A stretch of 64,000 nucleotides of DNA from an uncultured Peptococcaceae bacterium (GTDB lineage Bacteria > Bacillota > Dehalobacteriia > UBA4068 > UBA4997), in contig CANSKT010000002.1 in assembly GCA_947647555.1 (NCBI GenBank), positions 12,967-76,966 of the forward strand, read 5' to 3'. The first letter of the stretch is position 1. Every line of letters begins with the position of its first letter. Of the stretch, positions 9,327 to 46,646 are shown in pieces. The notes under the pieces are model-generated. The model saw nothing but the letters and a program-made list of their open reading frames with translations. It was not told where the DNA came from and ran no database searches. The position numbers and the translations under genes are program-made.

Positions 9327-9336
9327 ATCTTGACAA

Positions 9337-9475: not shown

Positions 9476-10075
9476 CGTATTTTTCACCAAAAAGCTGGCC
9501 AAAAATTCAATCTTGCAGGCCAACTCCAACTCCTCCAGACGATAAAACGCCTGCCGCAGATTAACGCCCCAGGCCACCGAACCATGCGCCTCCAGCAAAG
9601 CGCCGCGATACTGCCGGGCGGCTTCGCCCACAGCCGCGCCAAGCTGTTCCGTGCCCGGTTTGGCAAACGGCAGCAGCGGAATTTCCCCCAAACATTCCGT
9701 AACCTCCGGCAAACAACTGCCCTGCAAGGTACGCCCGGCCGCCGCAAAGGCTGTGGCAAACGGCGAATGAGCATGCACAACCGCCTGTATCTCCGGGTTA
9801 TGCTGATAAATCTGCAAATGCATCGGCAATTCTGAAGTTGGTTTCAAACCCGGCGCGGCCACATTAGGCAGCATATGCCCCTGCATATCAACCAGCAGCA
9901 AATCAGCCGCCGTCAGTTCGCCCTTGGAACGCCCGGCCGGTGTTACCAGAATTTCATTTTCATTCAAACGTATGCTAATATTACCGTCGTGCCCGGCTAT
10001 CATGCCGTTCAACAGCAAACGGCGGCCGACCTCAACAATTTCCGCAGCAGCAGCCGTCAGAGTAAATTGCTTCAT
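9470..10075 (-). CDS. class II aldolase/adducin-family protein (MtnB-like methylthioribulose-1-phosphate dehydratase or fuculose-phosphate aldolase-like)
   Basis: Class II aldolase motifs (GHDGNISIR, HAHSPFATAF). Adjacent to mtnA. Confidence 0.7.
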   Translation of the reverse strand: MKQFTLTAAAAEIVEVGRRLLLNGMIAGHDGNISIRLNENEILVTPAGRSKGELTAADLLLVDMQGHMLPNVAAPGLKPTSELPMHLQIYQHNPEIQAVVHAHSPFATAFAAAGRTLQGSCLPEVTECLGEIPLLPFAKPGTEQLGAAVGEAARQYRGALLEAHGSVAWGVNLRQAFYRLEELELACKIEFLASFLVKNTQ

Positions 10076-12687: not shown

Positions 12688-12690
12688 ATA

Positions 12691-14289: not shown

Positions 14290-15867
14290 TTATTTTTGCC
14301 CACTGTTTTTAGAATTACCTTTGGCGTCCGTATGAGCCGCAACATTTTTGCGCTCCAGCCGTTTAACCTCCAACTCAAACCAGAAACAGCTGCCCAGACC
14401 CTCTGTGCTTTCCACACCATACGCGCCGCCATGCAAATCCAGAATATTCTTCACAATCGCCAGCCCCAAACCATTGCCGGCATGCGTGCGCTGATGATTG
14501 GCGCTGCCCTTGTAATAACGCCGCCAAATATCCTTAATCTGTTCCGGCGCAATGCCCTCGCCGGTATCAATAACCTCAATGCGTACCCGGCTGCCGTGGT
14601 GCAGCAGCAGCTGGCGTATCGTCACCAGCTTATCCGCGCCGGTATAGGTTACGGCATTGTTAATCAGATTATAAATAACCTGCGTCAGCTTTATTTCGTC
14701 AGCCTCCACCCACAGACGCGCCGTTGGCTGAAAATCAATCGTATAGCCCTCCGTCGCCATCAGCTTGTTAAAACGCACGATAATGCTCTGAATTAACTCC
14801 GTTAACTCAAACTCATGCGGCTCCAGCTTAATTGCCCCGGCCTGTAATTTGGACATATCCAGCAAATCACTAACCAGTACGGAAAGGCGCTCCGTTTCAT
14901 CAATGATTACCTGCACATTTTCCGGCGTGTTCTCCCCCGGCAAATCACGCATAGCCTCGCTATATGCCGTAATCAGCGTCAGCGGCGTGCGCAAATCGTG
15001 TGAAATGTTGGCAATCAAATCCTTTTGCAGCTGCTCGGTTTTGGCCAACTCCACCGCCGCATAGTTCAATGAGTCGGCCAGCTGTTTAATCTCCTTATCA
15101 GCATGCGGCACGCTGAAATCCAGCTCAAAATCACCCTGCGCCAACCGCCGGGAAAGTTTGTTGATATGAATAATCGGCCGCGAGATATGCCCGGCCAGCA
15201 CCAAAGCCATGAAAAAGCCCAGCAGCATCATAACGCCGGTCAGCAGAATAAGCTGCAAACGCAACGTGCTGACGGTGGAATCCAGCGGCGCAATATTGCC
15301 GTTAATCATAACAGCATAACGGCCGCCGTCCTCCGGCGTATCCACCAGCTGCACAGAAACCAGCATCGTAGGCGTATCATAATTATGCTTCAGCGCGCCG
15401 ATAATACTCCGGAAACGCTTGCCTAAAAGCAGCGCCAGTTCATTATCCGACGTTTGCTCCGGCCCAAAATCCAATTCATAAAAGACATTGCCCTCATTAT
15501 GCTCCGCCGCCAGCGCCAAAATCATCACTTCATCAGCCGTCAACTCATGAATAATGCACATGCCGGCCACGTCCACACTTTGTGCGCGCAGATTAAGACC
15601 GTCATAAGAGTCCAGCTTGGCCACCAGCACGCAAAGATAATTGTTGCGCGCCGCAGAAAACATCAGGCCGCCCAAATCATCACTGCCAAAACCGTTGGTT
15701 TGCAGGCTCTGACATAATTCCGCGGAAACCCGATGAATGGCGTTGGTTTTAACCTTTTTATAAATTGTATCCAGAAAAACCGTTTGCACCAGCCAAAGCA
15801 GCACCAGCATAATCAGGGAAAAAAGCATAAAATAGGCAAAAATCCGCCATTTTATGCCGCCGCGCAT
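14290..15867 (-). CDS. sensor histidine kinase (TM + HAMP + HisKA + HATPase_c)
   Basis: H-box (SHDLRTPLT), N/G boxes (NLINNAVTYT, GNGLGLAIV). Start chosen at MRGGIKW with a GAGGAAAG RBS. The longest ORF extends to 15942. Confidence 0.8.
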   Translation of the reverse strand: MRGGIKWRIFAYFMLFSLIMLVLLWLVQTVFLDTIYKKVKTNAIHRVSAELCQSLQTNGFGSDDLGGLMFSAARNNYLCVLVAKLDSYDGLNLRAQSVDVAGMCIIHELTADEVMILALAAEHNEGNVFYELDFGPEQTSDNELALLLGKRFRSIIGALKHNYDTPTMLVSVQLVDTPEDGGRYAVMINGNIAPLDSTVSTLRLQLILLTGVMMLLGFFMALVLAGHISRPIIHINKLSRRLAQGDFELDFSVPHADKEIKQLADSLNYAAVELAKTEQLQKDLIANISHDLRTPLTLITAYSEAMRDLPGENTPENVQVIIDETERLSVLVSDLLDMSKLQAGAIKLEPHEFELTELIQSIIVRFNKLMATEGYTIDFQPTARLWVEADEIKLTQVIYNLINNAVTYTGADKLVTIRQLLLHHGSRVRIEVIDTGEGIAPEQIKDIWRRYYKGSANHQRTHAGNGLGLAIVKNILDLHGGAYGVESTEGLGSCFWFELEVKRLERKNVAAHTDAKGNSKNSGQK

Positions 15868-15957
15868 TCTGCTGCTTTCCTCAACGGAATTTACTTTGTA
15901 CTTAAATGTTTTACGTTTTCTTTTCAGCTTAAATTTTTCCATGGTATTCTATCTTTT

Positions 15958-16662
15958 TTATTCCGTTTTGCTCTCAAAGCGATAACCCACGCCGCGCAGT
16001 GTTACAATGCACTTGGCATACGCTCCCAGGCTTTTGCGCAGCAGCTTGATATGCGTATCCAGCGTGCGGTCGTCGCCATAATAATCATAACCCCAGATTT
16101 CTGTGATAATCTTTTCCCGGGTTAAAGCCCGGCCGCGGTTCTGCACCAGATAAAAAAGCAAATCATACTCCTTGGGCGACATATTGCGCCGCTCACCGTC
16201 AACATAAACCAATCGCGCCGAAAAATCAATACACAAACCGCCCATCTGCAAAACCTCATGCTCCACAGTGCTCTCCTGCTGCGCAGCCGCTTTCTGGCTG
16301 CCGGCGCGGCGCAGGATAGCGTCAATCCGCAACATCAACTCGCGCGGTGAAAACGGCTTCACCACATAATCATCACCGCCGGCTTCAAAGCCATGTATGC
16401 GGTCATATTCCTCGCCGCGCGCAGACAGCATCAACATCGGCACGTCACGCATTTTCCGGATTTCCCGGCAGGCGGAAAAACCGTCTAATTCCGGCATCAT
16501 AATATCCATCACAATCAAATCAACATCAGCATTGGCCCGACAATAGTCGATTGCCTCCATGCCGTTGGCGGCCTCAGCCACTTCATAACCCTCAAACTGA
16601 GCATATTTTTTAATAATCTGACGAATACCAGCTTCATCGTCCACAATCAGCAGCTTGGTCAT
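15958..16662 (-). CDS. OmpR-family response regulator
   Basis: Receiver domain (LLIVDDE...DLIVMDIMMPELDG) plus a winged helix (TLRGVGYRF). Confidence 0.9.
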   Translation of the reverse strand: MTKLLIVDDEAGIRQIIKKYAQFEGYEVAEAANGMEAIDYCRANADVDLIVMDIMMPELDGFSACREIRKMRDVPMLMLSARGEEYDRIHGFEAGGDDYVVKPFSPRELMLRIDAILRRAGSQKAAAQQESTVEHEVLQMGGLCIDFSARLVYVDGERRNMSPKEYDLLFYLVQNRGRALTREKIITEIWGYDYYGDDRTLDTHIKLLRKSLGAYAKCIVTLRGVGYRFESKTE

Positions 16663-20712: not shown

Positions 20713-21966
20713 TTAATCTAATTCCGGATAAAGCGGATAAGCCGCGCAAAGTTCGCGCACAATACCGGCTGCCTCTTGCAGTTTGGCCTCGTCCTCGCCA
20801 TAGCTTAAAGCCAAATCAATCGCCTTAGCCACCTGACGCATTTCCGCCTCGCCAAAGCCACGCGTGGTCATGGCCGGGCTACCCAGACGTATACCGCTGG
20901 TGATAAAGGGACTTTGCGTATCAAACGGCACCGCGTTTTTATTGCAGGTAATGCCGATAGAGTCCAGACGATGTTCCGCATATTTGCCGGTAATGCCTTT
21001 GCTGGTCAGGTTCACCAAAATCAAATGATTATCCGTACCGCCGGACACCAGATGGAACCCAGCCGCCAGCAATTCCTCGGCCAGCGCCTGCGCGTTAGCC
21101 AGAATTTTATGGCCGTATTCCTTAAAATCGGGCTGCAAAGCTTCGCCCAACGCCACCGCTTTGGCGGCAATTACATGCATCAGAGGGCCGCCCTGACAAC
21201 CGGGGAATATAGCCTTATCAATATCCTTAGCCAGCTTTTCGCCGCAGAGAATTAAGCCGCCGCGTGGGCCACGCAGAGTTTTATGGGTCGTCGTGGTAAC
21301 CACGTCAGCATGCGGCACAGGGCTTGGGTGCAGACCAGCTGCCACCAGACCGGCAATATGCGCCATATCTACCATTAAAAGCGCGCCAACCTCTTTGGCA
21401 ATATCCGCCAAAGCCGCAAAATCAATAATGCGCGGATAAGCCGAAGCGCCGGCCACAATCAGTTTGGGGCTTTCTGCTTTGGCAATCTCACGAACATGGT
21501 CATAATCAATAACCTCGGTTTCCGGCTCCACGCCGTATGCCGCAAAATTATAGGTTTTACCGGAATAGTTAACCGGGCTGCCATGCGTCAGATGACCGCC
21601 ATGCGCCAGGTTCATACCCAACACCTTATCGCCCGGCTGCAACAGCGCAAAATAAACCGCCGTGTTGGCCTGCGCGCCGCTGTGGGGCTGCACATTGGCA
21701 TGCTCCGCGCCAAAAAGCTTCTTCGCGCGCTCTCTTGCTAAATCCTCCACCACGTCCACATACTCACAACCGCCATAATAACGCTTGCCCGGGTAACCCT
21801 CGGCATATTTATTGGTCAACACACTGCCCTGCGCCTCCATTACGGCCAGGCTGGTAAAGTTCTCTGAAGCGATTAACTCAATTTTATTGCGCTGCCGGGA
21901 TAATTCCTGCTGCATTGCCGCAAAAATTTCCGGGTCAGACTGCTCTACAAACTGCAACTTGTTCAT
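20713..21966 (-). CDS. glyA: serine hydroxymethyltransferase
   Basis: SHMT motifs, including the PLP-lysine region ([15 protein letters not shown]). Confidence 0.95.
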
Positions 21967-22040: not shown

Positions 22041-23264
22041 TCATTCCGGCAGTTGATAAACCAGCGGAAATTCCTTATCTACATTCTGCCAGCAACGGCA
22101 AAACAGCTTAAAGTGCAGTTCATTACCCTCCGCACCGCTGAAGCTGAAATCCGGCGTGGGACTGCCCATCGGCATGCCGCTGCTCAAATATTGCCAGTAT
22201 AATTCAAAATTCTCCGCCTTAATCTCATAATCATTATTGGCCTGCAAAAACGCCTCCGCTTCCGCCTTAACCTCTGGCGTTACCAGCGTGTTTTCCATAT
22301 TCAGCAGGGTTTTGTTCTGCTTATCGTAAAGGTCAAAGGAAGCGCCGTCGCCCCAAAGCATAAAGCGCTCGTTGGCCCACCAGACATATTTTCTGGCGTA
22401 TTCGTTCTGATAAATCTCCGCCGCCTTATATTCGGTTACCGCGCCGGTTGGCTCATTAATACATACCGCGCCAATCTCATCATCAGAAATCCAGACGTTT
22501 TCACCCTGCACAAATGGCTCCGGCAAATCGACAATCATAATTGTATGCACGCAGTAGGTTGGCACAGCGCCGCCCTGTCCGGCTGCCGGCACATAAGCGT
22601 TAACCTTATAATCAAAACTCAACGAGCCGCTGCCAAGACCGCCAACATTCACAATGTAGTTGCCGGCCGGCGTCTGTTGCACACTTAAAGCAACAGGCTC
22701 ATGAAAATTGCCGGGGTCAGTCAATGAGGGCAAATTCAGCTTGCCCAGCAGCTGGCCGTCCTTGCTGAAATCGCCGGTCAGCTGGTCCAGCTTAAAAACC
22801 TCGCCGCTGCTTAAAGTATATTTCAGTTTGGGCGAGGTCAGCCAAACCGCATTATTGCGCCAGTCCAAATCATATTGCAGCAGCGTTTCCGTTATAAAAC
22901 GCAAAGGCACATAGGTTACGCCACGGCTGATAAAAGCCGCCTGTTCCAGTTCATACCTGCTGTGTTCTATCGAATTTTCTTCCTCACGGACAAGCTCCGG
23001 GGTTTTTGAGCCAATTTGCATGGTCAGAATACCACCGTCTGGCAAATAAGCAGTAATTGTCTGCGTTTTTTCCTCCCATTCCACCGCGCCGCCCACGGTT
23101 TCAAACATGTTGCGCAGCGGCATATAAGTATAACCGCCCCGCTCCAAACCGGTCGTTACGCGCTCACCGTCCAGATATACCGGCACATTGGCCGCCAGAC
23201 AGGTCTGCGCCGCGCCAAACGCCAAAACCACCAACAGCAGCATCGTCAAAAAAATTTTTTTCAT
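22041..23264 (-). CDS. secreted protein, paralog family A (P1): signal peptide + copper-amine-oxidase N-terminal-like domain + ~280-aa uncharacterised domain
   Basis: Signal peptide ending AQTCLA. CuAO-N-like motif (VPVYLDGERV...YMPLRNMFETVGGAVEWEEKTQTITA). Shared family motifs RTPAGNY, WWANERY, TPEVKAEAE and a C-terminal PLVYQLP. Conserved GAGTGATAGTGAAATG translation-start context. Confidence 0.7.
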   Translation of the reverse strand: MKKIFLTMLLLVVLAFGAAQTCLAANVPVYLDGERVTTGLERGGYTYMPLRNMFETVGGAVEWEEKTQTITAYLPDGGILTMQIGSKTPELVREEENSIEHSRYELEQAAFISRGVTYVPLRFITETLLQYDLDWRNNAVWLTSPKLKYTLSSGEVFKLDQLTGDFSKDGQLLGKLNLPSLTDPGNFHEPVALSVQQTPAGNYIVNVGGLGSGSLSFDYKVNAYVPAAGQGGAVPTYCVHTIMIVDLPEPFVQGENVWISDDEIGAVCINEPTGAVTEYKAAEIYQNEYARKYVWWANERFMLWGDGASFDLYDKQNKTLLNMENTLVTPEVKAEAEAFLQANNDYEIKAENFELYWQYLSSGMPMGSPTPDFSFSGAEGNELHFKLFCRCWQNVDKEFPLVYQLPE

Positions 23265-23288
23265 TTCACTATCACTCCTCAAAATAAT

Positions 23289-24533
23289 TTATTGCAAAGT
23301 GTAACTAAGCGGAAATACCTGCCGCGCCTGACCGCCGTCCGAAGTTGCATAATAGCCGCAAATCAGCTCAAAATTAAGCTTGCCGTTCTCCTCGCCTGTA
23401 AATTTCAGATATGGCACCGGGTCAACTTTATGAGCGGCGCCCAGCCCCTCCCAATAATAATCAGCATTATTGACATCAAAGGTAATACTGGAATTATCCG
23501 CCATGAAATTGTTAGCTTCTGCCTTAACCTCGTCTGTCAGCAGTAGCGGCACCAAATCATGTCCGGTTTGGTTCTGCATATCATAAAGCACATAGCCGCC
23601 GCCATCGCCCAGTAAAATCAGCCGGCCGTCCGTCCAGCGAACAGAGCCGCAGGCGTACTCATCACCGGTTACCTGGCTGGCCCAAGCCTGCGTGTCCACC
23701 TGATTAATCTGACCGCTGGTCTCATCAATGCAGAAATTATGGCTGTATCCGTTCAGCCAAACCTTGCCCTCACTACACACAATACCCGGCAAAAAATCGT
23801 CGAGCATAGATGTATTACAATCAGAAAGTCCTTTTTGTCCGTCGGCGCTGATCCAGCAGTTCCATTGCAGGCTATAAGCCATAACGCCCAGACTAGTGCC
23901 GCTCCCATCAAGCAGATAGCTGCCGGCCGGCGTACGCCGCACCTCAAATCCATAAACATGCTGGGCGTGATACCCGGCATAGCCCGGCACTTTGGCCTGA
24001 TTGGTGATTAGCTTATCATTCAGCCAAAGTTCGCCGTTGGCCATGTTCAGGATATATTTATCCTCACCCTGCGTATATTCCAGCCGCGGCTGGGTGATAT
24101 AAACCGCATTATCGCGCCAGTCCACCTCATAACCAAGCACATCATCACTTATAAAACGCAGTGGCACATAAGTTATACCCCGACTGACAAAAGGCGGTTG
24201 CTCCATATAAGGATAACTCGGGTTATCATACTCTTCATCACCCATTCTGTAGTGATATTGCGCATCCGCATAATTATTTCCCACCTGCATGGTAAGCACA
24301 CCACCGTCCGCAAAGGTGGCGATAATCTTCTGCTCCGGCTCGCTCCATTCCACGCTTGCGCCGACGGTTTCAAACATGGTGCGCAGCGGCAGATATGTAT
24401 AACCGCCCCGCTCCAAACCAATCGCCACGCGCTCACCCTCCAGATACACCGGCACATTGGCCGCCAGACAGGTCTGAGCCGCGCCAAACGTCAACACCAC
24501 TAACATCAACATTGTCAAAAAAAGTTTCTTCAT
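23289..24533 (-). CDS. secreted protein, paralog family A (P2)
   Basis: Same architecture as P1. The first ~170 nt are about 85-90% identical to P1 at the nucleotide level. Confidence 0.7.
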   Translation of the reverse strand: MKKLFLTMLMLVVLTFGAAQTCLAANVPVYLEGERVAIGLERGGYTYLPLRTMFETVGASVEWSEPEQKIIATFADGGVLTMQVGNNYADAQYHYRMGDEEYDNPSYPYMEQPPFVSRGITYVPLRFISDDVLGYEVDWRDNAVYITQPRLEYTQGEDKYILNMANGELWLNDKLITNQAKVPGYAGYHAQHVYGFEVRRTPAGSYLLDGSGTSLGVMAYSLQWNCWISADGQKGLSDCNTSMLDDFLPGIVCSEGKVWLNGYSHNFCIDETSGQINQVDTQAWASQVTGDEYACGSVRWTDGRLILLGDGGGYVLYDMQNQTGHDLVPLLLTDEVKAEANNFMADNSSITFDVNNADYYWEGLGAAHKVDPVPYLKFTGEENGKLNFELICGYYATSDGGQARQVFPLSYTLQ

Positions 24534-24574
24534 TTTACTATCACTCCTAAAAATAATTTATATAAACGCCATTT

Positions 24575-25771
24575 TTACCTCGGCAGCTTATAAACCAGCG
24601 GATACTCTTTATACACATTGCTTAAACCGTCGCTGTCCTCTTGGCGGTAGTTGCAGATTAAAGAAAAATAAAGTTTTTTGCCCTTGGCATAGTTAAAATG
24701 CAACTCTGGCACCGGGTCAGCCATCGGCAGTCCGATATTGAGATAACTCCAATACCATTCAAACTCGCTATCACTAATCGGGAAATCCTGCTCAGACTGC
24801 AAAAATTCCTCGGCCTCGGCCTTAACCTCCGGGGTCAGCAAAAGCGGCGTTAAATCCAGCAGCGTTTCCTTTTGGCGGTCATAAAGCCGCAGACCGCCCA
24901 GCAGCATATAGCGCTCGTTGGCCCACCAGCAAATTCCCTGCCCATCGCCCGTGAAACGAGTAATCTCGCCGGTGCAGTCGTTAACGCAGATTGAGCCGTC
25001 GTCGTCCGCCAGCCAGAGATTTTTCCCCTGCCAGAAAGGTTGCGGCATAGGCTCAATAATACTATGCACGCAACAGGTCTGCACCTCGCCACCGGCCGAC
25101 GGTATCCAGGCCGCCAGCTGATAGCTGAAGCTTAAAGCGCCGCTACCCATGGCTCCGGACTGAAACAAATAATTGCCGGACGGTGTTCTGTGTATGCCAA
25201 ATTTATCCGGCGGATACCAGCTGCCTGGCTCGCTGGCCGAGGGCAAATTCAGCCGGCATAACTCGCAGCCGTTAAGATATAAAACGCCGCTTAACAGGTT
25301 CAATGTAAACTTTTCTTCAGACGACAGATTGAAATGCAGCTTTGGTGCATTCAACCAAACCGCATTGTCGCGCCGCTCCAGATTATAGCCCATAACTTTT
25401 TCGTCCGCCGCCAGACTCAACGGCAGATAAATAATATCATCTCGAATAAACGGCGGCTGTTCCGCGTAAATTGTAGCCGCATACTCCCCTTTATCAATGC
25501 GACCCTCCGTCTGCCCCACCTGCATAATCAAAGTACCGCGCAACGGCAAAACGGCCTCAATCTGATTATCCGCAAAAGCGCCCTCCGCGTTCACCAGACG
25601 AAAAAACTCCGGCATTGGCAAATACAATTCGCCGTTCTGTTCAAGCGCCGTCGCCACGCGCCGCCCCTCCAGCCAAACCGCCGCGCCGTTCTCCGGCAGG
25701 GCGATTGTTGGATTAACAGCAGAAACACCAGACATCAGCAGCATTAACACCGCCATAAACCAATTAATCAT
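24575..25771 (-). CDS. secreted protein, paralog family A (P3)
   Basis: Same family motifs (RTPSGNY, WWANERYML, TPEVKAEAEEF, PLVYKLP). Start at MINWF with the conserved GAGTGATAGTAAAATG context. Confidence 0.65.
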   Translation of the reverse strand: MINWFMAVLMLLMSGVSAVNPTIALPENGAAVWLEGRRVATALEQNGELYLPMPEFFRLVNAEGAFADNQIEAVLPLRGTLIMQVGQTEGRIDKGEYAATIYAEQPPFIRDDIIYLPLSLAADEKVMGYNLERRDNAVWLNAPKLHFNLSSEEKFTLNLLSGVLYLNGCELCRLNLPSASEPGSWYPPDKFGIHRTPSGNYLFQSGAMGSGALSFSYQLAAWIPSAGGEVQTCCVHSIIEPMPQPFWQGKNLWLADDDGSICVNDCTGEITRFTGDGQGICWWANERYMLLGGLRLYDRQKETLLDLTPLLLTPEVKAEAEEFLQSEQDFPISDSEFEWYWSYLNIGLPMADPVPELHFNYAKGKKLYFSLICNYRQEDSDGLSNVYKEYPLVYKLPR

Positions 25772-25843
25772 TTTACTATCACTCACAATCTATCACAATT
25801 TATAAATTTATTTTAGCACCATTTGGTCGGATAAGCAACATTA

Positions 25844-26332
25844 TCACAAATCAACAGTAAAAATAACCTGCAAATGCTCGTTATCGGCATTATCATAAAA
25901 CGGCGTAATGCCGGCGCAGTTTTCCAGCAGATAATCCAAATCGGTAACATAGGGCGGCAAATCCGCCGTATCCGTAATTTTGGGAAAATTCTGCCGCACC
26001 TGTTCCGCCAGACTGAAATGACGCAGCCAATAGGCAATATCCTTAACCCAGATATGGTCTTTCAGCGTAATAATTTCATTTTCCGTATCCACCAGAAACT
26101 CGCCGCCCACCAATATATTCAGCGGCGTTCGATTGGTTTCTCGCCATTTGCCGCCACCCAGACAAAGCTGAATACCATACCAGGCCTTGTCCAACGCACA
26201 ACTGCGCGGCGTGCCGAAAAGCCGCTCCTCAAACTCCTCCAGCATATAATCATAACGCTCCGCCTCCGGTCTGGCACAAAGTTCCGCCAGTTCCTTATCC
26301 GTCAGCGCATATAAAACTCCCAAACGTGACAT
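25844..26332 (-). CDS. hypothetical cytoplasmic protein (DUF1877/YfbM-like?) embedded in the secreted-protein cluster
   Basis: 162 aa with no signal peptide. The family call is tentative. Confidence 0.4.
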   Translation of the reverse strand: MSRLGVLYALTDKELAELCARPEAERYDYMLEEFEERLFGTPRSCALDKAWYGIQLCLGGGKWRETNRTPLNILVGGEFLVDTENEIITLKDHIWVKDIAYWLRHFSLAEQVRQNFPKITDTADLPPYVTDLDYLLENCAGITPFYDNADNEHLQVIFTVDL

Positions 26333-26342
26333 ATTAACCTCC

Positions 26343-27605
26343 TTAATCTGTCGCCGTTGCGTCCGGCGCCAGCTTCAATTTTACAACATAATCATCAGCC
26401 AGTATTAAAAGCTGCTGGCCGTCCGGCGATATAGCTCCCTTTTCAAAATTCCACAAACCCGGATATTGTTCCGTCAGCCCGTCCGTTTCTGTGCAGAAAA
26501 TAATCTTGCTGGCATTATCCGCATAATTACAAGCCACAATACGGCAGGGCTCGGCGTTTTCCTCGGCAAAATGCTCAGAAAAATAAATTGTATCGCCATA
26601 GGCCGCCAGCAGACCACCGCCGTTGTTATCCTGAAAGGTACACTCGCCCAACAGACCGCCGGACAGATTGACAATCTGATAATGACTGCCGTCCTCGCAG
26701 ACAGCGTGCAGTACAACATAATCACCGGTCACATTTTGCACCGGCTGCACTTCGCTATAAAAAAGCCATGGAACGCTGGTCGGCCATTCCACATATGCGC
26801 GGCGCTGCTGCACCTTAACTTCGCCACTGTTCGCCGGCAGGGTTACCTCCAACAAATCGCCAGCAGTGCCCAGCAACAGCCAGCGGTCCGGCTTTTGCAC
26901 CGTGGGCGGCATAAACAGGCACCAAGGGCAGTCCATTTTGGCCAGCCTGACCTCTTTACCGGTTTTTTCATCATATAAATTGATAAAATGCGTTATACGC
27001 TGTAACTCCTTGGGGTCCTGCTCAAAGCGAGTTAACAGATACCGGCCATCACCCAGCCAAAACGCCTGGTCATCTCTATTCAGTTCGAGGCTGTCCGGCA
27101 CGGCAAATTCCTGAGTCTGTCCGGTAACATTATCATAAACCAGAAAACTGTGCAGCCTTTGATTATAAAGCACCAACTGCTGACTGGCCGAAAGATAATA
27201 GCCGCTTAAATAATAATCATTTTCATATAAACTATCCTCCGGCCAGACACAAAGCTGCTCCGGTTCCGCTCCGTCCGCCATACGGAAAATTTTGCCCTGC
27301 CAACCGTCAGCTGTTCGGCTAACGCCATACAGCAAATAGTCCGTATCATTATAATAATAGGCCTCCTCCAAATCAAACCGCCAAACCTCATCTTCCGTCA
27401 GCGACTCGCCCTCTCGCCATTTGTCGTTGGGCAGACCGGGCACCTGCGTAACCTGCTCAATCTGCACAACTGATTCCTGCAACAACTCCGGCTCCGTTCG
27501 CGGCGGCTGCTCTGCCGGCTGTTTCTGAACCAAATCCAGCCCAAACAACGCTCCGACTGCCAGACACAGACTTAATGCAAATATAATACTTAACCTTTTT
27601 TTCAT
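26343..27605 (-). CDS. lipoprotein, paralog family B (P4), probable beta-propeller-like extracellular protein
   Basis: Start MKKRLS overlaps the P5 stop (TAATG). A signal peptide is followed by a Cys. Shares its domain order and several motifs with P5. Confidence 0.6.
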   Translation of the reverse strand: MKKRLSIIFALSLCLAVGALFGLDLVQKQPAEQPPRTEPELLQESVVQIEQVTQVPGLPNDKWREGESLTEDEVWRFDLEEAYYYNDTDYLLYGVSRTADGWQGKIFRMADGAEPEQLCVWPEDSLYENDYYLSGYYLSASQQLVLYNQRLHSFLVYDNVTGQTQEFAVPDSLELNRDDQAFWLGDGRYLLTRFEQDPKELQRITHFINLYDEKTGKEVRLAKMDCPWCLFMPPTVQKPDRWLLLGTAGDLLEVTLPANSGEVKVQQRRAYVEWPTSVPWLFYSEVQPVQNVTGDYVVLHAVCEDGSHYQIVNLSGGLLGECTFQDNNGGGLLAAYGDTIYFSEHFAEENAEPCRIVACNYADNASKIIFCTETDGLTEQYPGLWNFEKGAISPDGQQLLILADDYVVKLKLAPDATATD

Positions 27606-28822
27606 TATTTCGCCAACTCCTTTTCGCTCCCGGCCAACGGCAGACGCCAAACCTCCCGATAGCTGCAAAGCAGAAGCTGCCGGCCGTCCGGGCTGCAAAC
27701 TCCCTGATAAAACCAGTTTAAGCGCGGCTTACGCTGGCTACGGTTGTTAAAAATCTCATTTTCCTCGCCGGTCAGATAATTATAGGCCAGCAAATGCAAA
27801 TAACGCTCATCATTTTCCCAAACATAATTGGGGAAATACAGGAAATCCCCCTGCGCGCCCAATAACTCCGCATCATTAGCCAGTTCTTGCCCTGCGGCGT
27901 TTTCAATACGCTGCGGCAGACTATAACGCCCCATTTCCGCGCCGGCCGCCCAGTCAATCACCTGATAAGTCATATTCTCATCACCATAAACGGACAGCAC
28001 CGCGCGCACGCTCTCCGTGTTCGGCACCAGCCGCATACGGTTATAATATACCTCCGTATCGCCGGTTGGCCATTCCTCCGGGCAGTGGTGCAGATTTTCA
28101 ATCCGCGCGCTCTCCGCGTCCAGATGCAATTCTAAGATATCACCGGCGTTAGTCATCATCAGCCAAACGCCCGGCTCCAGCTGGCAGTAATCCTGTATCC
28201 AGCGCCCATTCATCTCGGCCAGCGGCTGCTCACTGTCCGCCGCCAAATCATACAGACTCAAAGCAACGCGCCAATCTGGCAGTCTACGACCCAGCAAAAA
28301 CAGGTTTTCCGTCAGGCAAAGCGCAGTAACCTCTCTTTCGTCCTGCATCAAATCTTGTGTCAAAGGCAGCTGTATCTGCCGGCCGGTTGCCGCCGCCAAA
28401 TCATACAAATAAAACTGCTGACGGTACGGGTTATACATCGCGCAAACGCCGGCTTCCGGCAGATAAGCGGAAGAAAAACCCCATTCGTCAAAGGTAAAAT
28501 CGCCCTCCTCCGGCCAGCGGCAAACCCATTGCAGTTCGGTACCAGTCAACCGGAACAGCTGACACTGATAGCCGTCCTCGGTAATGGTGGGCGCAAACAG
28601 CAGCCATTCCTGCGGCGCCAGATAATAAGCGTCATAAATAATCATCTGATTATTACCAACCAACGTCCCGTTGCTATTCGGTTTAACATCTTCGCCAAAC
28701 TCCTCGGCCAGCCAGTATTCGTATACGGAAACGTCCTCGCCCGGAGTGGCGTCCGGCTCGCCGCAGCCTGCTAACAGCAACATCAAAAGCAACAGCCCCA
28801 GCGCTGCCCAAAGCCTTTTCAT
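27605..28822 (-). CDS. lipoprotein, paralog family B (P5)
   Basis: Lipobox LLAGC. Start overlaps the P6 stop (ATGA). Paralogous to P4 (for example the shared SPDGRQLLL / SPDGQQLLI motif). Confidence 0.6.
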   Translation of the reverse strand: MKRLWAALGLLLLMLLLAGCGEPDATPGEDVSVYEYWLAEEFGEDVKPNSNGTLVGNNQMIIYDAYYLAPQEWLLFAPTITEDGYQCQLFRLTGTELQWVCRWPEEGDFTFDEWGFSSAYLPEAGVCAMYNPYRQQFYLYDLAAATGRQIQLPLTQDLMQDEREVTALCLTENLFLLGRRLPDWRVALSLYDLAADSEQPLAEMNGRWIQDYCQLEPGVWLMMTNAGDILELHLDAESARIENLHHCPEEWPTGDTEVYYNRMRLVPNTESVRAVLSVYGDENMTYQVIDWAAGAEMGRYSLPQRIENAAGQELANDAELLGAQGDFLYFPNYVWENDERYLHLLAYNYLTGEENEIFNNRSQRKPRLNWFYQGVCSPDGRQLLLCSYREVWRLPLAGSEKELAK

Positions 28823-30120
28823 GACATCAACTCCTCAATCTGCTCAAGACTAATGCTTAATGGTAAAACCTGCGTACTGCTGTTATGAACTACGGAGCTG
28901 TAAAATACAACCGATAAATTAAAATAAAGCACGCCCTCAGATATATAGTCGAACTCCAGCCAAGGCATACTTGTCCAAGCAGGCAACTCATTATATTTAC
29001 CCAGGTTCTGCCAAAATTCATTTATGGCCACCGTTTCTTTATAAATATCCGGCGCGGCCTTACGCATATAATTATTGGCCCATTCTATGGCATAATCTGT
29101 CAAAAGCAGCGAATTTAACGCAACACCTTTATCCAACTGCATATCATAAAGAACATAATTCACACAATCGTTCAGCATTAAATAACGCTGGCCGTCCGTC
29201 CAGCAGCAATAAGCCCTCTCTGGCCGCCAACCCAACACTTTCTCCATCATGGCCACAGTATCATAATATTGTGCCGCCGCTTCAGCCTGCTTTTTATCCT
29301 CCAGCAGCCACATACCGGCATTGCCGTTTAAGTACACCTTGCCGGCCTGCTCCAGTGGCCAAAATGCAGCGCCCGTATGTTGCGGCCGATAACTTAACGC
29401 GCGCGTCATATAGTTTTGACCGCTTGCAGCATTGACAAAATAAAAATAGAAATCTGAATAATACTTACTTTCTAAATAATAAGAATTGTTAATATAGACC
29501 AGATAATTGCCGCCGGCAGTCGGGTTTACAGATAAAATACCGTATTCATGTAAATGCTTCCGCCAGGGCAGTTGCAGAGTTGAAAGCAGCTGACCGTTTT
29601 TGCATAATTCTCCGTTGTGCAGATTTAAAGTGTATAAATCCGCATTTTCCTCGTCCTCATAAACTGTTTTCGCATATGTCAGCCGCACCTCGCTGCCGTC
29701 ATCGTCCGGCCATTCCCAGTTCAGCCACCAACACAGCGCTTCCAGCCCAACATACATAACATCATCATGCACAAACGGTTTCAACCCAGCAGAACTGCTC
29801 CAACCATAACCATTGGGAAAAGAAAAGCTAAAATCGGTCTGGTCACAATCCGAACGGTACGGATAAATGTGCAGAACACTTTCGTCCGGCATTTCCACCA
29901 GCAAACAAACTCCACCCTCGTCTTCGCTCCAGCGCGGCTCCAAATCAAACCGCGCCAGCATTTCGCGCAACGGTACATAATAACTTTCACCTTTTTGCAT
30001 CGCACTGCCAATATTCTCTCCCTCAAGATAAACCGGCACGTTAGCCGCCAGGCCAGTCTGCGGCAGTCCAAAACAAAAAACCAATAACCAACACATCATC
30101 AACAAAACATTTTTCTTCAT
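28819..30120 (-). CDS. secreted protein, paralog family A (P6)
   Basis: Signal peptide + CuAO-N-like motif (ANVPVYLEGENIG...YVPLREM) + family-A core. Start at MKKNVL preceded by the GGGTGATAGTAAAATG context. Confidence 0.65.
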   Translation of the reverse strand: MKKNVLLMMCWLLVFCFGLPQTGLAANVPVYLEGENIGSAMQKGESYYVPLREMLARFDLEPRWSEDEGGVCLLVEMPDESVLHIYPYRSDCDQTDFSFSFPNGYGWSSSAGLKPFVHDDVMYVGLEALCWWLNWEWPDDDGSEVRLTYAKTVYEDEENADLYTLNLHNGELCKNGQLLSTLQLPWRKHLHEYGILSVNPTAGGNYLVYINNSYYLESKYYSDFYFYFVNAASGQNYMTRALSYRPQHTGAAFWPLEQAGKVYLNGNAGMWLLEDKKQAEAAAQYYDTVAMMEKVLGWRPERAYCCWTDGQRYLMLNDCVNYVLYDMQLDKGVALNSLLLTDYAIEWANNYMRKAAPDIYKETVAINEFWQNLGKYNELPAWTSMPWLEFDYISEGVLYFNLSVVFYSSVVHNSSTQVLPLSISLEQIEELMS

Positions 30121-30202
30121 TTTACTATCACCCTTTCCAATATAAGCTATCACCATTATAACACGCTAAAGCTACTTTTTCACCTTTTTTCCGAAATTAA
30201 TA

Positions 30203-30230
30203 AACACCCTCGCAATACACGAGGGTGTTT
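30203..30230 (-). terminator. hairpin terminator after the fumarate hydratase operon
   Basis: AAACACCCTCG...CGAGGGTGTTT inverted repeat just downstream of the fumarate hydratase beta stop. Confidence 0.45.
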
Positions 30231-30249
30231 AATTATTTGTTCAAAGTGA

Positions 30250-31704: not shown

Positions 31705-32886
31705 TTAGATACGCGCTACGCCGGAAGCCTTGGCCGCATCAGCCACAGCTTTGGCAATAACCGCCGCCACGTTCTTATCCAGCGCGCTGGGAATAATGTT
31801 CTCATTGTTCAGTTCAGCGTCCGGAATATAACCAGCCAGCGCCTTAGCCGCCGCCAGCTTCATTTCTTCATTAATATCAGAAGCGCGTACCGCCAGTGCG
31901 CCCTTGAAAAGGCCCGGGAATACCAGTACATTATTAATCTGATTGGGGAAATCAGAACGACCTGTACCGATTACCGCAGCACCGCCTGCTTTGGCCTCGT
32001 CGGGGAAAATTTCCGGTGTGGGATTAGCCATAGCAAAGATAATTGCGTCTTTAGCCATAGTTTTCACCATATCGGTGGTCAACAGACCGGGCTTGGATAC
32101 ACCAACGAAAACGTCAGAATCTTTAACTGCTTCAGCCAGACCACCGGTGCGTCCCTCATGGTTGGTCTGCGCCGCCAAATCCTTGTGGTTATCATTCAAC
32201 ATGGTAGCCGGAACATCTTTGTTGATAATGCCCTCCATGTCCACCAAGAACATATCTTTAACGCCCATTGCCAGAATAATCCGGGCAATGGCGGAACCAG
32301 CCGCACCACAACCGTTAATAACAATTTTCAAATCTTCCATCTTCTTGCCCACAACCTTGGCGGCATTGATGATGGCGCTTAAAACGCAAACGGCAGTGCC
32401 ATGCTGGTCATCATGGAAAATCGGAATATCTGTTTCTTCTTTCAGGCGCTGCTCAATATAGAAGCAACGGGGAGCCGCGATATCCTCAAGATTTACGCCG
32501 CCGAAAACCGGAGCAATATTTTTAACGATTTTGATAATTTCTTCATCGTCCTGGGTGTCAATACAAATCGGAAAAGCGTCTACATCAGCAAATTCCTTAA
32601 ACAGGATACTCTTACCCTCCATAACCGGAATTGCCGCCTTGGCGCCAATATTGCCCAAGCCCAAAACCGCGCTGCCGTCAGAAACCACAGCCACCAAATT
32701 GCCCTTGGCGGTGTATTTGTAAACATCATCTGCGTTATCGCGGATTTTGCGGCAAGGCTCCGCTACACCAGGAGTATAAGCAGTGCTTAAATCATCTCTG
32801 GTCTTAACCTCCACCTTGCTGACGACCTCGATTTTGCCCTGATGCTTTTCATGCATTTCCAGAGCCAGTTGGTTATAATCTGCCAT
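31705..32886 (-). CDS. NAD(P)-dependent malic enzyme (short form)
   Basis: Malic-enzyme N-terminal and NAD-binding motifs (YTPGVAEPC, VINGCGAAG). Confidence 0.85.
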   Translation of the reverse strand: MADYNQLALEMHEKHQGKIEVVSKVEVKTRDDLSTAYTPGVAEPCRKIRDNADDVYKYTAKGNLVAVVSDGSAVLGLGNIGAKAAIPVMEGKSILFKEFADVDAFPICIDTQDDEEIIKIVKNIAPVFGGVNLEDIAAPRCFYIEQRLKEETDIPIFHDDQHGTAVCVLSAIINAAKVVGKKMEDLKIVINGCGAAGSAIARIILAMGVKDMFLVDMEGIINKDVPATMLNDNHKDLAAQTNHEGRTGGLAEAVKDSDVFVGVSKPGLLTTDMVKTMAKDAIIFAMANPTPEIFPDEAKAGGAAVIGTGRSDFPNQINNVLVFPGLFKGALAVRASDINEEMKLAAAKALAGYIPDAELNNENIIPSALDKNVAAVIAKAVADAAKASGVARI

Positions 32887-33102
32887 TTTACATCTTCCTC
32901 TCTTTCATTTGCAGTTTTGCTGCAATTTTTTCAGGCAGAAGCGCCGGGCCGGTAAAAAAGCCTTTTACTTCTTCTCTACTTATATAATAAACTATTTACG
33001 CAACAATTACAACTTAAATTTTGCAAAATAGCAAGATTTTTTCTATTAACCAACAATTAAAATTACTAAACCTGCATAACTATGGCCGCTATGTTAATTA
33101 CA

Positions 33103-33867
33103 TTAAGTATTCTTTCTAAAATCCTTAACAAGGCAAAAAGAAGTTACACAAAATAAAATAATACATAAAATTTGAGATGTTGACATAAATGCTATTCCAC
33201 TACGTATTTCATCATACCTAAAAAATTCCAGGCAAAATCTACAAATGGAATATATTAATAAATACAGATAAAGACCACTATTATACCGTAATTTTTTACT
33301 GAATATCAAAAGAACAATGCCAAGCATAAGTTCAATAAACGCTTCAACTAATTGGACAGGAAATAATTCTACATTAACTGGTGCAAACTGTGAGTCAGTA
33401 TATGTAATAGACAACCAGCCTTCATATGGAATACCGTAACAGCAGCCAACCAAAAAACAACCAATTCGTCCGAACGCATGCCCAAAAGGTAAACAAGCAA
33501 TACAGGCCTGAATGTAAGGTTGCACGGAAATACCAAGATATTTATTGCAGATGTACAATGCTATAAGCAGACCAACAATTCCTCCCAGAAACACAAAGCC
33601 ACCATTCATTAATGAGTTCATATAAGACCAATCATTTAGTTTAGTAAAAATAATATATTTGTATGAAGTAATTAAATAAAGTATTTTAGCACAAATAATG
33701 CTTAAAAGTGCAGAAAAAGCACATATAATAATAAAATCATTTGCAACAAGCCCAAATCTTTTAATTTGTAAATACGAAATCGGAATATTTACCAAAATAC
33801 CGATAACAATCATCAACCCATAATAAGTAATAAAATGGGATAAAAACCAAAAACCAATTTGCTCCAT
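33103..33867 (-). CDS. lgt: prolipoprotein diacylglyceryl transferase-like protein (Lgt family, divergent GRIGCF..GCCYG variant) in an AT-rich islet
   Basis: Seven-TM architecture. The Lgt signature is present in variant form (HAFGRIGCFLVGCCYG instead of GRIGNFxNxE) with a conserved P.QL.E helix (FPVQLVEAFIELMLG). Its GC content is far below that of the flanking genes. Confidence 0.6.
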   Translation of the reverse strand: MEQIGFWFLSHFITYYGLMIVIGILVNIPISYLQIKRFGLVANDFIIICAFSALLSIICAKILYLITSYKYIIFTKLNDWSYMNSLMNGGFVFLGGIVGLLIALYICNKYLGISVQPYIQACIACLPFGHAFGRIGCFLVGCCYGIPYEGWLSITYTDSQFAPVNVELFPVQLVEAFIELMLGIVLLIFSKKLRYNSGLYLYLLIYSICRFCLEFFRYDEIRSGIAFMSTSQILCIILFCVTSFCLVKDFRKNT

Positions 33868-33963
33868 AAAATACACCTCAAAAAAACGATAGCCGCCCCT
33901 TTTTACATGATAGGAGCGGCGTACCATAATTTTATCCTTTGAACATAAACCGATTGTATGTTT

Positions 33964-34215
33964 TCATTGTGCCATAACAGCCAGGCCGCCAACGCACGCA
34001 ACACAAGCAATATAGAAAAGCAGGCACAGAATAGTTCCGATTATGGAACAAACCAATCCGGCCATAGCAATTCCATTAGGATTATTTTTTCTTGCAATAG
34101 CCCCAAGAATGATACCAATAATACCAATAATTGCACCCAGCCAGCCAATTGTTCCAGCCGTAAAGACGCCAAGAATAATCGACAAAATTCCCAAAACTAA
34201 TGAAGCAATTCCCAT
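33964..34215 (-). CDS. DUF4190-like small membrane protein
   Basis: 83 aa with two Gly/Ile-rich TM helices. AGGAGG RBS 8 nt upstream. Confidence 0.6.
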   Translation of the reverse strand: MGIASLVLGILSIILGVFTAGTIGWLGAIIGIIGIILGAIARKNNPNGIAMAGLVCSIIGTILCLLFYIACVACVGGLAVMAQ

Positions 34216-35443: not shown

Positions 35444-35485
35444 TAAATTTTGGAATTTCATTTGATTAAAGAGAGGAAAAATAAT

Positions 35486-37171
35486 ATGAAAATAGCCCTT
35501 GCCCAGATAAAAGTTCGCGCCGGACGGCCGGACATAAATTTTCAAAACATGCTGGATTTCTGCCGTCAGGCCGCCAAACAGCAGGCGGATTTAATCGTCT
35601 TTCCCGAGCTGGCCATGAGCGGCAGTTTTTTGGGTCAGGCCTGGGCCAGTCCCGGCTTGCTGGCTGAAATTCAGAAATTTAACCAGAAGTTGATTGCCGC
35701 CAGCAGTCAGCTGCATGAAGCCGTAATTGTATTCGGCAGTATCGGCATGGTTAAAACCCCGGACGGCAACAGTTCACCCACCAGCGCTATTTACGTGGCG
35801 CAAAACGGCGCGCAGCTTTCCTCACCGGCCGGCAGTTTCCGCGCCAAGGTAAATGGTCAGACGCTGGATTTTGCCCTGCTGACCGAGCAGCAAAGCCAGC
35901 CGGCCGCGCCTATTGTACTGAAGCTGGCCACCTCCTGTTTTGTGCAGGAAAAAACGCCGCAGTTTTACCAAAGCTTTGCCGCTTATGCCAAAACCTATGG
36001 CAAAACGCTGGTTTATGTTAACCACGTCGGCGTGCAGGACGCCGGCAAACCGGTCTATGTTTATGACGGCGCCAGCGCTGTTTTCAGCCCGGACGGCGAA
36101 CTGCTGGCTGCCGCGCCCCAGTTTGCGGAACATCTGCTGCTTTTCGATACGGAGCAGACACCAAAGCCGCTGGAACTGCCCAAAACCGACAGCACCGCCG
36201 CGCTTTATGACGGTCTGGTACATGCTATCCGCGAGTATTCGGCCAATTTGGGTATAAACCGGGCAGTAATCGGCCTATCCGGCGGTATCGACTCCTGCTT
36301 AAACGCCTGCCTGCTGACAGCCGCTTTGGGCAAGGAAAATGTTTTGGGTATCAATCTGCCCTCCCGTTATAATTCCGACGCCACCCGGGAATGTGCGGAA
36401 AAGCTGGCCGCCAATTTGGATATTCGTTATGAGGTGCTGCCCATTCAGGATATGGTAGACCAGCGCGCCGAACTGCTGGCCCAGCTTAACCTGCCCCTCT
36501 CCGCGGAAATGCTGGAAAATGTGCAGTCCCGGGAACGCGGCGCTGGCTTTTTGGCTGCGGCCGCGGCTGCTTTCGGCGGCGCGGTAATCTGTAATGGCAA
36601 CAAAAGCGAGTTTACAATCGGCTACGCTACCATGTACGGCGACGCTATCGGTTATTTTGCACCTCTGGGCGACCTCTGGAAATGCCAGATTTATGAAATT
36701 GCCCGGTATATTTATGAAACTTCTGGTCTGCTGCCGCTGGCGGCGTTGGAACTCCAGCCCAGCGCTGAACTTTCTGATGCGCAGGATATTGAAAAAGGCC
36801 TGGGCGACCCTCTTTGCTATGCTTACCATGATTATCTGTTCCGCAGTTGGGTGGAATGGGGTCAGGATATCACAGACAGTCTGACCTTTTATGAGCAGGG
36901 CAAGCTGGCCGAGGTTACCGGCTGCGGCACCGAGCAACTGCGCCAGCTTTTCCCGGACACTGAAAGTTTTCTGGCCGATTTGGAGCGTTGGTGGCAGTTA
37001 TATCGGGGGCTGGCTGTGGCCAAGCGTTTACAGGCGCCGCCGGTTCTTTCCCTCTCGCGCCGGGCGTTTGGCGCCGACCTGCCGGAAAGTCAGACCGGCT
37101 GCCATCTGGACGACGAATATTTAACCCTAAAAGCCAAAGTGCTGGCCAAAGCCGACCAGCTGGCATTTTAA
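35486..37171 (+). CDS. nadE: glutamine-dependent NAD+ synthetase (N-terminal nitrilase/CN-hydrolase domain + NAD synthetase domain)
   Basis: CN-hydrolase region (LIVFPELAMSG) and the NAD-synthetase P-loop (GLSGGIDS). GAGAGGA RBS. Confidence 0.9.
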   Translation: MKIALAQIKVRAGRPDINFQNMLDFCRQAAKQQADLIVFPELAMSGSFLGQAWASPGLLAEIQKFNQKLIAASSQLHEAVIVFGSIGMVKTPDGNSSPTSAIYVAQNGAQLSSPAGSFRAKVNGQTLDFALLTEQQSQPAAPIVLKLATSCFVQEKTPQFYQSFAAYAKTYGKTLVYVNHVGVQDAGKPVYVYDGASAVFSPDGELLAAAPQFAEHLLLFDTEQTPKPLELPKTDSTAALYDGLVHAIREYSANLGINRAVIGLSGGIDSCLNACLLTAALGKENVLGINLPSRYNSDATRECAEKLAANLDIRYEVLPIQDMVDQRAELLAQLNLPLSAEMLENVQSRERGAGFLAAAAAAFGGAVICNGNKSEFTIGYATMYGDAIGYFAPLGDLWKCQIYEIARYIYETSGLLPLAALELQPSAELSDAQDIEKGLGDPLCYAYHDYLFRSWVEWGQDITDSLTFYEQGKLAEVTGCGTEQLRQLFPDTESFLADLERWWQLYRGLAVAKRLQAPPVLSLSRRAFGADLPESQTGCHLDDEYLTLKAKVLAKADQLAF

Positions 37172-46597: not shown

Positions 46598-46600
46598 AGA

Positions 46601-46638: not shown

Positions 46639-46646
46639 CTGGCAGA

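Follow-up and report, generated by a model that had tools for sequence, protein, structure and literature searches.

Clustered surface proteins that vary between strains are a known theme. In Clostridioides difficile, the Cwp cluster encodes paralogous exported proteins with a common wall-anchoring module and strain-to-strain cassette variation, and in Mycoplasma the Vlp, Vsp and Vsa families of variable surface lipoproteins have conserved 5' ends. Bacillota, including the Peptococcaceae, are normally single-membraned; the MAG relatives of the host studied here are labelled Bacillota or Peptococcaceae. Proteins with a copper-amine-oxidase-N-type domain (PF07833) have been recovered in the surfaceome of a member of the Peptococcaceae, Desulfotomaculum reducens (PMC4137172). 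Here we describe, in a window of 64,000 nucleotides (the whole stretch of DNA that was analysed), a block of genes that we tentatively take to be a lineage-restricted cell-envelope module made of two undescribed protein families in an uncultured gut-type Bacillota bacterium. What is new is the definition of the two families, linked by fusions and gene coupling, and of a hypervariable slot flanked by conserved housekeeping genes.

The block consists of seven co-directional minus-strand genes between fumB and glyA (Table 1), and independently made gene predictions for six metagenome contigs reproduced all seven product lengths. The sequence-only reading had described a block of co-directional exported paralogs; its outline holds, with six genes in two families (family A: P1, P2, P3 and P6; family B: P4 and P5) and a DUF1877 gene in the middle, but several of its details were wrong. 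It had placed the P6 start and the end of the block at 30156, but the in-frame ATG there lies further upstream, within the -10 box of a promoter-like site, and P6 probably starts at 30120; the start of P1 is 23264 rather than 23282. GC content is 0.49-0.51 in the block vs. 0.51-0.54 in the flanks. Searches of all seven proteins against Pfam, NCBIfam, PHROGs and PADLOC matched only PF07833 and DUF1877, and an Rfam search of the block returned nothing, so that a non-coding RNA reading was dropped. A mobile island was also rejected, given that the block is without integrase or transposase and that the fumB-glyA slot is fixed in L001, L014 and L006-L011.

Table 1. Genes and predicted signals of the block, in window coordinates
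Feature	Position	Strand	Description
fumB hairpin terminator	30201-30231	-	strong; 14-bp stem, inverted repeat I1
Promoter-like site, sigma-70-type	30155-30183	-	GTGAAA-17-TATAAT, TG upstream; ahead of P6; predicted
P6 start context	30118-30131	-	GTGATAGTAAAATG; conserved
P6	28819-30120	-	family A, 433 aa
P5	27605-28822	-	family B lipoprotein, 405 aa
P4	26343-27605	-	family B, 420 aa
DUF1877 (YfbM-type)	25844-26332	-	162 aa
P3 start context	25769-25782	-	GTGATAGTAAAATG; conserved
P3	24575-25771	-	family A, 398 aa
P2 start context	24531-24544	-	inside homogenised 5' segment
P2 5' homogenised segment (repeat D1)	24345-24561	-	ribosome-binding site, leader, ~first 60 codons
P2	23289-24533	-	family A, 414 aa
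P1 start context	23262-23275	-	inside homogenised 5' segment
P1 5' homogenised segment	23076-23292	-	partner of 24345-24561
P1	22041-23264	-	family A, 407 aa

The features of the DNA are compatible with a single operon from P6 to P1. Intergenic gaps within the block range from -4 to 72 nt, and no strong internal terminator was found in the block, nor one before glyA. The promoter-like site ahead of P6 is sigma-A-like (10 of 12 consensus positions; a consensus match only), and the fumB terminator probably marks the upstream edge of the block's predicted transcription unit. Coupled starts, as described earlier for this locus, were found at both junctions concerned: P6 and P5 overlap as ATGA, and the P4 start lies on the P5 stop as TAATG. 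The start context claimed for every family A gene was likewise recovered, with GTGATAGTRAAATG present in four copies in the 64-kb window, one at the start of each A gene and none elsewhere (0.01 expected by chance).

Family A proteins are laid out as a leader, a copper-amine-oxidase-N-type domain and a beta-rich core of ~260 aa, and P2, P3 and P6 are homologous to P1 over their full length (25-43% identity; tblastn E 1e-5 to 7e-88). The N-domain had been assigned to all four. When searched with Cu_amine_oxidN1 (PF07833; gathering cutoff 24.2 bits), P1 (56.7 bits, residues 43-138) and P2 (78.3 bits, residues 43-142) passed, whereas P3 stayed under the cutoff (15.5 bits, E=0.017) and P6 had no Pfam match. 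From their full-length alignment to P1 and P2, the N-domains of P3 and P6 are best read as divergent PF07833 homologues; P6 is homologous to P2 over residues 3-428 (E=6.5e-33), and 34 of 37 family A members score above the cutoff. P6 is the most divergent A paralogue, with a divergent N-domain and an extra C-terminal tail (LEQIEELMS). The core motifs RTPAGNY, WWANERY(M/F)L, TPEVKAEAE and PLVY.LP, reported for the family as a whole, are present in P1 and P3 but degenerate in P2 and P6, and all four proteins share only LYD and a few single residues. Conserved leaders, also reported for the whole family, do not extend to P3, whose leader is without a basic n-region and shares 23% identity with that of P1 over the first 30 aa.

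The core had been said to have no assignable function, and we too matched it to no described domain family: Pfam, NCBIfam, PHROGs, PADLOC and PDB sequences gave no match (PDB sequence and profile searches were both empty), and the core has 52 cluster representatives among 1.84 billion proteins. A model of the P1 core (residues 144-407) shows four 4-stranded beta meanders, a helical segment and a 3-stranded sheet; by global superposition on a solved propeller, it is not a closed beta-propeller. Among 37 diverse family A members T198 alone is invariant, conservation within the core is above 90% only at G164, G201 and F375, and a search of the core for conserved catalytic-type residues found none. 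The few conserved residues and the lack of an enzyme-family match point to a non-enzymatic role. The possibility that the A-core is a diverged copy of B was rejected (hhalign probability 0.8%). A blade-like DNA repeat, 'xDGxxLL' (D6), is common to the A-core and B and is suggestive only. A metagenome scan yielded one further short locus, L015. Low conservation, as such, does not strictly exclude catalysis by a core of this kind.

P4 and P5 are paralogues, as had been proposed (28% identity, E=5e-33). Both had been called LAGC lipoproteins, which is correct for P5, whose LAGC at residue 17 fits [LVI][ASTVI][GAS]C, but not for P4, whose hydrophobic leader or anchor (MKKRLSIIFALSLCLAVGALFG, ending ...ALSLCLAVGALFG) matches no lipobox pattern. 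The L002 orthologue of P4 has the lipobox LVLTGC, the B genes in L003 and L004 encode lipoboxes too, and an lgt gene lies in the window at 33103-33927. The family B model is a closed 7-bladed beta-propeller that superposes on solved 7-bladed propellers (a predicted fold). For P4 and P5, Pfam contained no family at E<=1, including PD40, WD40 and PQQ repeats, a PDB-sequence profile search for the family gave E>=0.04, and family B forms 6 clusters.

All six A and B proteins have an N-terminal hydrophobic segment (Kyte-Doolittle 15-residue maximum mean 2.3-2.8), in line with the signal peptides first noted in them, and they look exported and envelope-associated. We infer a surface location for both families and, from its context, a possible role of PF07833 as wall anchor. 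The tether of the A-core differs in some relatives, which have core-only lipoproteins (lipobox LVGC, AAGC or FLAGC), and P0004 combines a lipobox with the N-domain.

A and B genes occur together in all six multi-gene loci, and a synteny check found A+B blocks kept in the relatives L001, L002, L003, L004 and L014 as well as in the window. The sequence-only reading had named two findings that would weaken it, a core belonging to a known enzyme family and a block absent from relatives; neither was made, the A+B blocks recurring in relatives. A P6-type A gene directly adjoins B in L003 and L004, and in L001 and L014 the P6-like gene and B are not neighbours. In P0019 (681 aa) and P0020 (672 aa), which share only ~48% identity, a B lipoprotein is fused to an A-core with a tail of the same type as that of P6 (a helix in the model). 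Pairing and fusions recur across lineages in which A proteins are only ~40% identical. The fusions, together with the conserved P6-type A gene directly before B, are the strongest functional clue, one that the sequence-only reading had overlooked: A and B seem to function as partners, and may bind each other. No A-B interface is demonstrated by the fusion model, because its domain orientation is uncertain (pTM 0.56), and the lone A gene, without B, in L012/L013 and L005 indicates that A can exist without B.

The best reading of the block, which we hold with reserve, is a non-enzymatic complex that bridges membrane and cell wall and is diversified by recombination. Family A would be exported by the Sec pathway, held at the cell wall by its copper-amine-oxidase-N-type domain, and display a beta-rich, non-enzymatic core, and the family B propeller would be tethered to the membrane's outer face, with a lipid as the anchor of P5 and a leader or signal anchor as that of P4. 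A-cores, those of P6 type above all, would bind B propellers, and the resulting membrane-to-wall complex would offer a binding or scaffolding surface rather than an enzyme; adhesion or cargo presentation is speculation. Strains would differ because homologous recombination swaps whole genes, seeded in the homogenised 5' segment (ribosome-binding site, leader and first 60-85 codons).

Three haplotypes were found at one chromosomal slot (flanking proteins ~98-100% identical; flanks ~96-98% nucleotide-identical), and they differ by whole-gene replacement with breakpoints in the homogenised 5' segment. Compared with the window, L001 has P5 replaced by a 37%-identical allele, is missing P6 from the locus head, carries a 31%-identical A gene inserted before P1, and shows a P2 dS of 0.04, below the 0.09-0.23 of the flanks. 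The P2 slot of L014 is common to P2 over the first 254 nt only (92% identity). The 5' segments of P1 and P2 share 88% nucleotide identity, with a P1/P2 dS of 0.34 in codons 1-62 vs. 1.7 in the core, and the conserved 5' expression region and leader are common to the diverged P1, P2 and P6, not P3. Gene swaps may have been seeded by recombination in this segment; selection on an mRNA or leader feature could alternatively underlie the 5' similarity.

Diversifying selection had been suggested for this locus and is not borne out. Against the closest other haplotype, dN/dS is 0.19-0.31 per gene (0.05 for DUF1877 vs. L001) and 0-0.05 in the flanks, and in sliding 50-codon windows vs. L001 it never exceeds 1 where dS is measurable; positive selection is therefore not shown, and values of 0.19-0.31 still indicate purifying selection. 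The pattern is one of constraint relaxed relative to the flanks, together with recombination and the replacement of cassettes. When P1 alleles are compared, variable positions lie ~2x denser in the core than in the N-domain (a manual count from the list of invariant columns) and cluster at residues 183-192 and 317-326. The window haplotype was assembled six times independently, and between these assemblies each block gene differs by 0-1 nt, indicating no within-clone switching, and a search for invertible repeats, simple-repeat tracts and recombinase genes found none, the fumB terminator being the sole notable inverted repeat. Phase variation was rejected on these grounds.

These data bear on the view that A and B form a strain-specific recognition surface: they would make up an exposed complex, serving as antigen or phage receptor, and exchange of its alleles would allow escape from IgA or phage, or kin recognition. 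Such a surface would account for three haplotypes between near-identical flanks, a block dN/dS 5-10 times that of the flanks, the dense and clustered variation in the P1 core, and 5' ends homogenised as in variable surface-protein families. We nevertheless consider it unlikely, since dN/dS is below 1 in every measurable window, the six assemblies show no switching within the clone, and the repeats and recombinases sought were not found. Somewhat less likely again, A and B might be an undescribed two-part recognition device on the surface of single-membraned gut bacteria, in which a membrane-anchored propeller docks interchangeable wall-tethered A proteins that are exchanged as cassettes by their 5' handle; if so, each strain would be given its own recognition surface, e.g., for phage or IgA evasion or kin recognition.

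A role in cell-wall remodelling, with the A proteins as peptidoglycan hydrolases or as their regulators or inhibitors, comes to mind because PF07833 often accompanies wall-hydrolase domains. No peptidoglycan-hydrolase catalytic domain (glycosidase, amidase, M23, NlpC/P60 and similar) was matched in Pfam or NCBIfam, and we regard this role as improbable. A shade more doubtful is that the genes are unrelated or decaying duplicates that form no coherent system, their organisation being a by-product of tandem duplication. The extreme narrowness of both families, the relaxed constraint and one L003 B copy broken by a stop codon would fit decay, but all ORFs are intact in the three haplotypes and the six independent assemblies, the genes are under apparent purifying selection, and A+B pairing and fusions recur at great divergence of the A proteins.

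The DUF1877 ORF, thought to be cytoplasmic, matches PF08974 over its full length (81.1 bits, cutoff 22; E=1.4e-22; model positions 1-163 of 163) and is without a hydrophobic leader (Kyte-Doolittle 15-residue maximum mean 0.7). It is 98% identical in L001, where its dN/dS marks it as the block's most conserved gene; the arrays of L003 and L004 lack it, and its tie to A and B is positional only. The only mentions of DUF1877/YfbM found in the literature were gene-list annotations without a functional account. A polymorphic toxin/immunity or contact-dependent competition locus with DUF1877 as immunity protein would match a small cytoplasmic protein embedded among variable exported ones and a gene content that varies between strains, but is very improbable, since no toxin, LXG/WXG, Rhs, secretion-system or defence domain was found (Pfam, NCBIfam, PADLOC, PHROGs), immunity genes normally co-vary with toxins whereas this gene is the most conserved and is missing from two arrays, and a full-text literature search gave no paper pairing YfbM with 'immunity protein'.

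The two families, their links and the hypervariable slot offer a concrete target for work on surface variation in an uncultured Bacillota lineage, one of whose relatives stems from a MAG catalogue of the mouse gut; the practical value is limited by a very narrow distribution and no functional handle. Family A resembles exported PF07833 proteins of Bacillota (e.g., Desulfotomaculum reducens, PMC4137172) in having a leader followed by the copper-amine-oxidase-N-type domain, but differs from the PF07833 surfaceome proteins in that its ~260-aa core falls in no described family and is neither a hydrolase nor an annotated module. The best PDB match of the N-domain model is the N-domain of E. coli amine oxidase. 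The DUF1877 protein, with its full-length Pfam match, is like the E. coli YfbM family. Family B recalls secreted or lipid-anchored 7/8-bladed propellers such as E. coli YncE, as well as BamB, Ycf48 and the TolB C-domain, without sequence membership in them, and unlike BamB, TolB and Ycf48 it has no Bam, Tol or photosystem context here. As in the Mycoplasma Vlp, Vsp and Vsa families, a near-identical ribosome-binding site and leader precede highly diverged mature parts that are replaced like cassettes; unlike in those families, no switching machinery or within-clone variation was found, the variation being between strains only. Like the Cwp cluster, the block is a chromosomal cluster with a common anchoring module and cassette variation, but its anchoring module is PF07833 rather than CWB2, its non-anchor domain is the shared one, and it has an obligate-looking propeller lipoprotein partner to which the A-core can be fused.

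The block is bounded by the fumB terminator (30201-30231) on one side and glyA (20713-21966) on the other, and consists of seven minus-strand genes (see table); the same seven product lengths were predicted from six independent metagenome contigs. In gene order from P6 to P1, the intergenic spacings are -4, -1, 10, 72, 41 and 24 nt, and the coupled starts described in an earlier sequence-only reading were found as an ATGA overlap at P6/P5 and a TAATG overlap at P5/P4. We located a sigma-70-like site (GTGAAA-17-TATAAT, with TG upstream) at 30155-30183, and a terminator scan revealed no strong terminator within the block or ahead of glyA. Judged from these sequence features, namely the spacing, the overlaps, the single sigma-70-like site and the absence of a strong terminator, co-transcription of the seven genes is plausible. 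The conserved start context noticed earlier was also reproduced: GTGATAGTRAAATG is present at all four family-A gene starts (P6, P3, P2 and P1) and nowhere else (0.01 expected by chance).

Genes of the block between fumB and glyA
Gene	Coordinates	Strand	Product length
P6	28819-30120	minus	433 aa
P5	27605-28822	minus	405 aa
P4	26343-27605	minus	420 aa
DUF1877 protein	25844-26332	minus	162 aa
P3	24575-25771	minus	398 aa
P2	23289-24533	minus	414 aa
P1	22041-23264	minus	407 aa

Comparison of the products upheld the two proposed paralogies: P1, P2, P3 and P6 can be aligned over their entire length (25-43% identity to P1; tblastn E 1e-5 to 7e-88), and P4 and P5, which form family B, share 28% identity (E=5e-33). 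A hydrophobic leader was seen in 6/6 A and B proteins, and the DUF1877-like ORF gave a full-length Pfam match. The sequence-only reading, whose observation was largely correct and whose interpretation is supported in part, erred in several details. A Cu_amine_oxidN1 domain (PF07833), assigned to all four A proteins, scored above the Pfam cutoff in P1 and P2, but below it in P3, and P6 gave no match; in a wider set the domain is present in 34 of 37 family-A members. Both B proteins had been called LAGC lipoproteins, but only P5 carries the lipobox, which P4 lacks, unlike most B relatives. P1 and P3 fit the listed core motifs, whereas P2 and P6 carry degenerate versions.

The predicted structure of P1 (pLDDT 84.9, pTM 0.76) has a core of four 4-stranded meanders, a helical segment and, last, a 3-stranded sheet; no profile similarity was detected between this A-core and family B. 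Since T198 is the sole invariant position across 37 family-A members, and none of the conserved positions is acidic, His, Ser or Cys, this pattern favours a role of the A-core in binding or structure.

Synteny in relatives links the two families. Besides the window, arrays containing both A and B genes occur at five other loci (L001, L002, L003, L004 and L014), and a P6-type A gene, with its extra C-terminal tail, is immediately upstream of a B gene in the window, L003 and L004. In the L002 lineage, P0019 (681 aa) is a B lipoprotein fused to an A-core, with the N-domain absent; P0020 (672 aa), ~48% identical to P0019, has the same architecture, and both fusions end in the P6-type tail. In other relatives the A-core is tethered directly through a lipobox, and these varied tethers fit display of the A-core where membrane meets wall. 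Lone A genes also exist: P0014 stands by itself in L005, and P0004, a single family-A gene with both lipobox and PF07833, lies ~1 kb upstream of, and co-directional with, glyA in a more distant relative (L012 5601-6866, L013 4814-6079; glyA 85% nt identity), with a small opposite-strand ORF in between and no B gene at the locus. The array may have expanded from an ancestral arrangement of this kind, with an A gene upstream of glyA. At L003 8680-9884 (a Peptococcaceae-labelled MAG), a family-B gene is broken by an in-frame stop after ~90 codons, reflecting either pseudogenisation or an error in the assembly. In the L004 array, the last full-length A gene is followed by a gene (8938-9570) whose 210-aa product is a polytopic membrane protein that matches no Pfam family and has no counterpart in the window.

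Six assemblies carry the window haplotype, their block genes each differing by 0-1 nt. In L001, the flanking proteins are ~98-100% identical to those of the window (flank dS 0.09-0.23, dN/dS 0-0.05); there, a 37%-identical allele replaces P5, the locus head is without P6, an additional A gene (436 aa) precedes P1, and identity is 82% for P4, 86% for P3, 91% for P1 and 97% for P2, the dS of P2 (0.04) being below the flank values. In a third haplotype, L014, the P2-slot gene matches P2 over the first 254 nt only (92% identity). P1 and P2 of the window have a common 217-nt 5' segment (88% identity); at the protein level, their identity is 90% up to ~residue 60 and 13-40% beyond it. The low dS over codons 1-62 (0.34) compared with the core (1.7) points to recent shared ancestry of the 5' segment, by gene conversion or recombination, beyond peptide selection alone; the pattern is weaker in P6 and absent in P3. 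Quantification of dN/dS gave 0.19-0.31 for A and B genes, with no value >1 in any analysis window with measurable dS, and neither invertible repeats nor simple-repeat tracts were found. Among 15 P1 alleles, variable positions (counted from the invariant-column list) are ~2x denser in the core than in the N-domain and cluster at residues 183-192 and 317-326.

Other features of the window were noted as well. The lgt gene (prolipoprotein diacylglyceryl transferase; 33103-33927, minus) lies upstream of the block at a distance of ~3 kb; GC falls to 0.39 around it (32001-34000), and a small hydrophobic ORF of 83 aa (33964-34215, minus) and a NAD synthase gene (35450-37171, plus) are nearby. The A/B array of L004 comes directly after NAD synthase, and the two neighbourhoods are thus related but rearranged. 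At 11275-14175 (minus), an MBOAT membrane O-acyltransferase adjoins an AlgX/DHHW SGNH-like protein, making up an envelope O-acylation pair of DltB/DltD-like or PatA/PatB-like type, with a histidine kinase-response regulator pair upstream (14290-16662). A 411-aa protein (45117-46352, plus), with an anti-sigma-like N-terminus, a single membrane span, a Pro/Thr-rich linker and TolB/PD40-like 'SPDxSKLLF' motifs in its C-terminal part, looks like another extracytoplasmic propeller-type sensor, possibly paired with an upstream ECF sigma factor; a 190-aa ORF lies upstream at 44408-44980. Beyond a tRNA-Leu (CAG; 46510-46597) comes a stretch of low GC (0.395) with small ORFs only, one resembling a ribbon-helix-helix protein (47016-47213, minus), and then a 548-aa TPR-like protein (47744-49390); the 46510-47750 region may be a small integrated islet.

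The best-supported reading of the A/B block is a non-enzymatic envelope complex, in which B propellers would be tethered to the membrane, PF07833 would retain A proteins in the wall, and A-cores would dock onto B, while recombination, initiated within the homogenised 5' segment, would diversify the locus between strains. PF07833 proteins in a surfaceome study support a wall location for the domain (PMC4137172). Envelope location of the products is well supported and the A-B partnership moderately so; involvement of the DUF1877 protein, encoded by the block's most conserved gene and missing from more distant arrays, is doubtful. In a word-indexed search covering 5.8 billion proteins, P1 had matches in 15 clusters and family B in 6, and exhaustive HMMER over 1.84 billion cluster representatives gave 52 A-core matches, nearly all ~400 aa with the core placed C-terminally; NCBIfam, PHROGs, PADLOC and PDB sequence searches gave no significant match. 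Both families are undescribed; a cluster of variable, exported envelope proteins is itself a familiar kind of locus.
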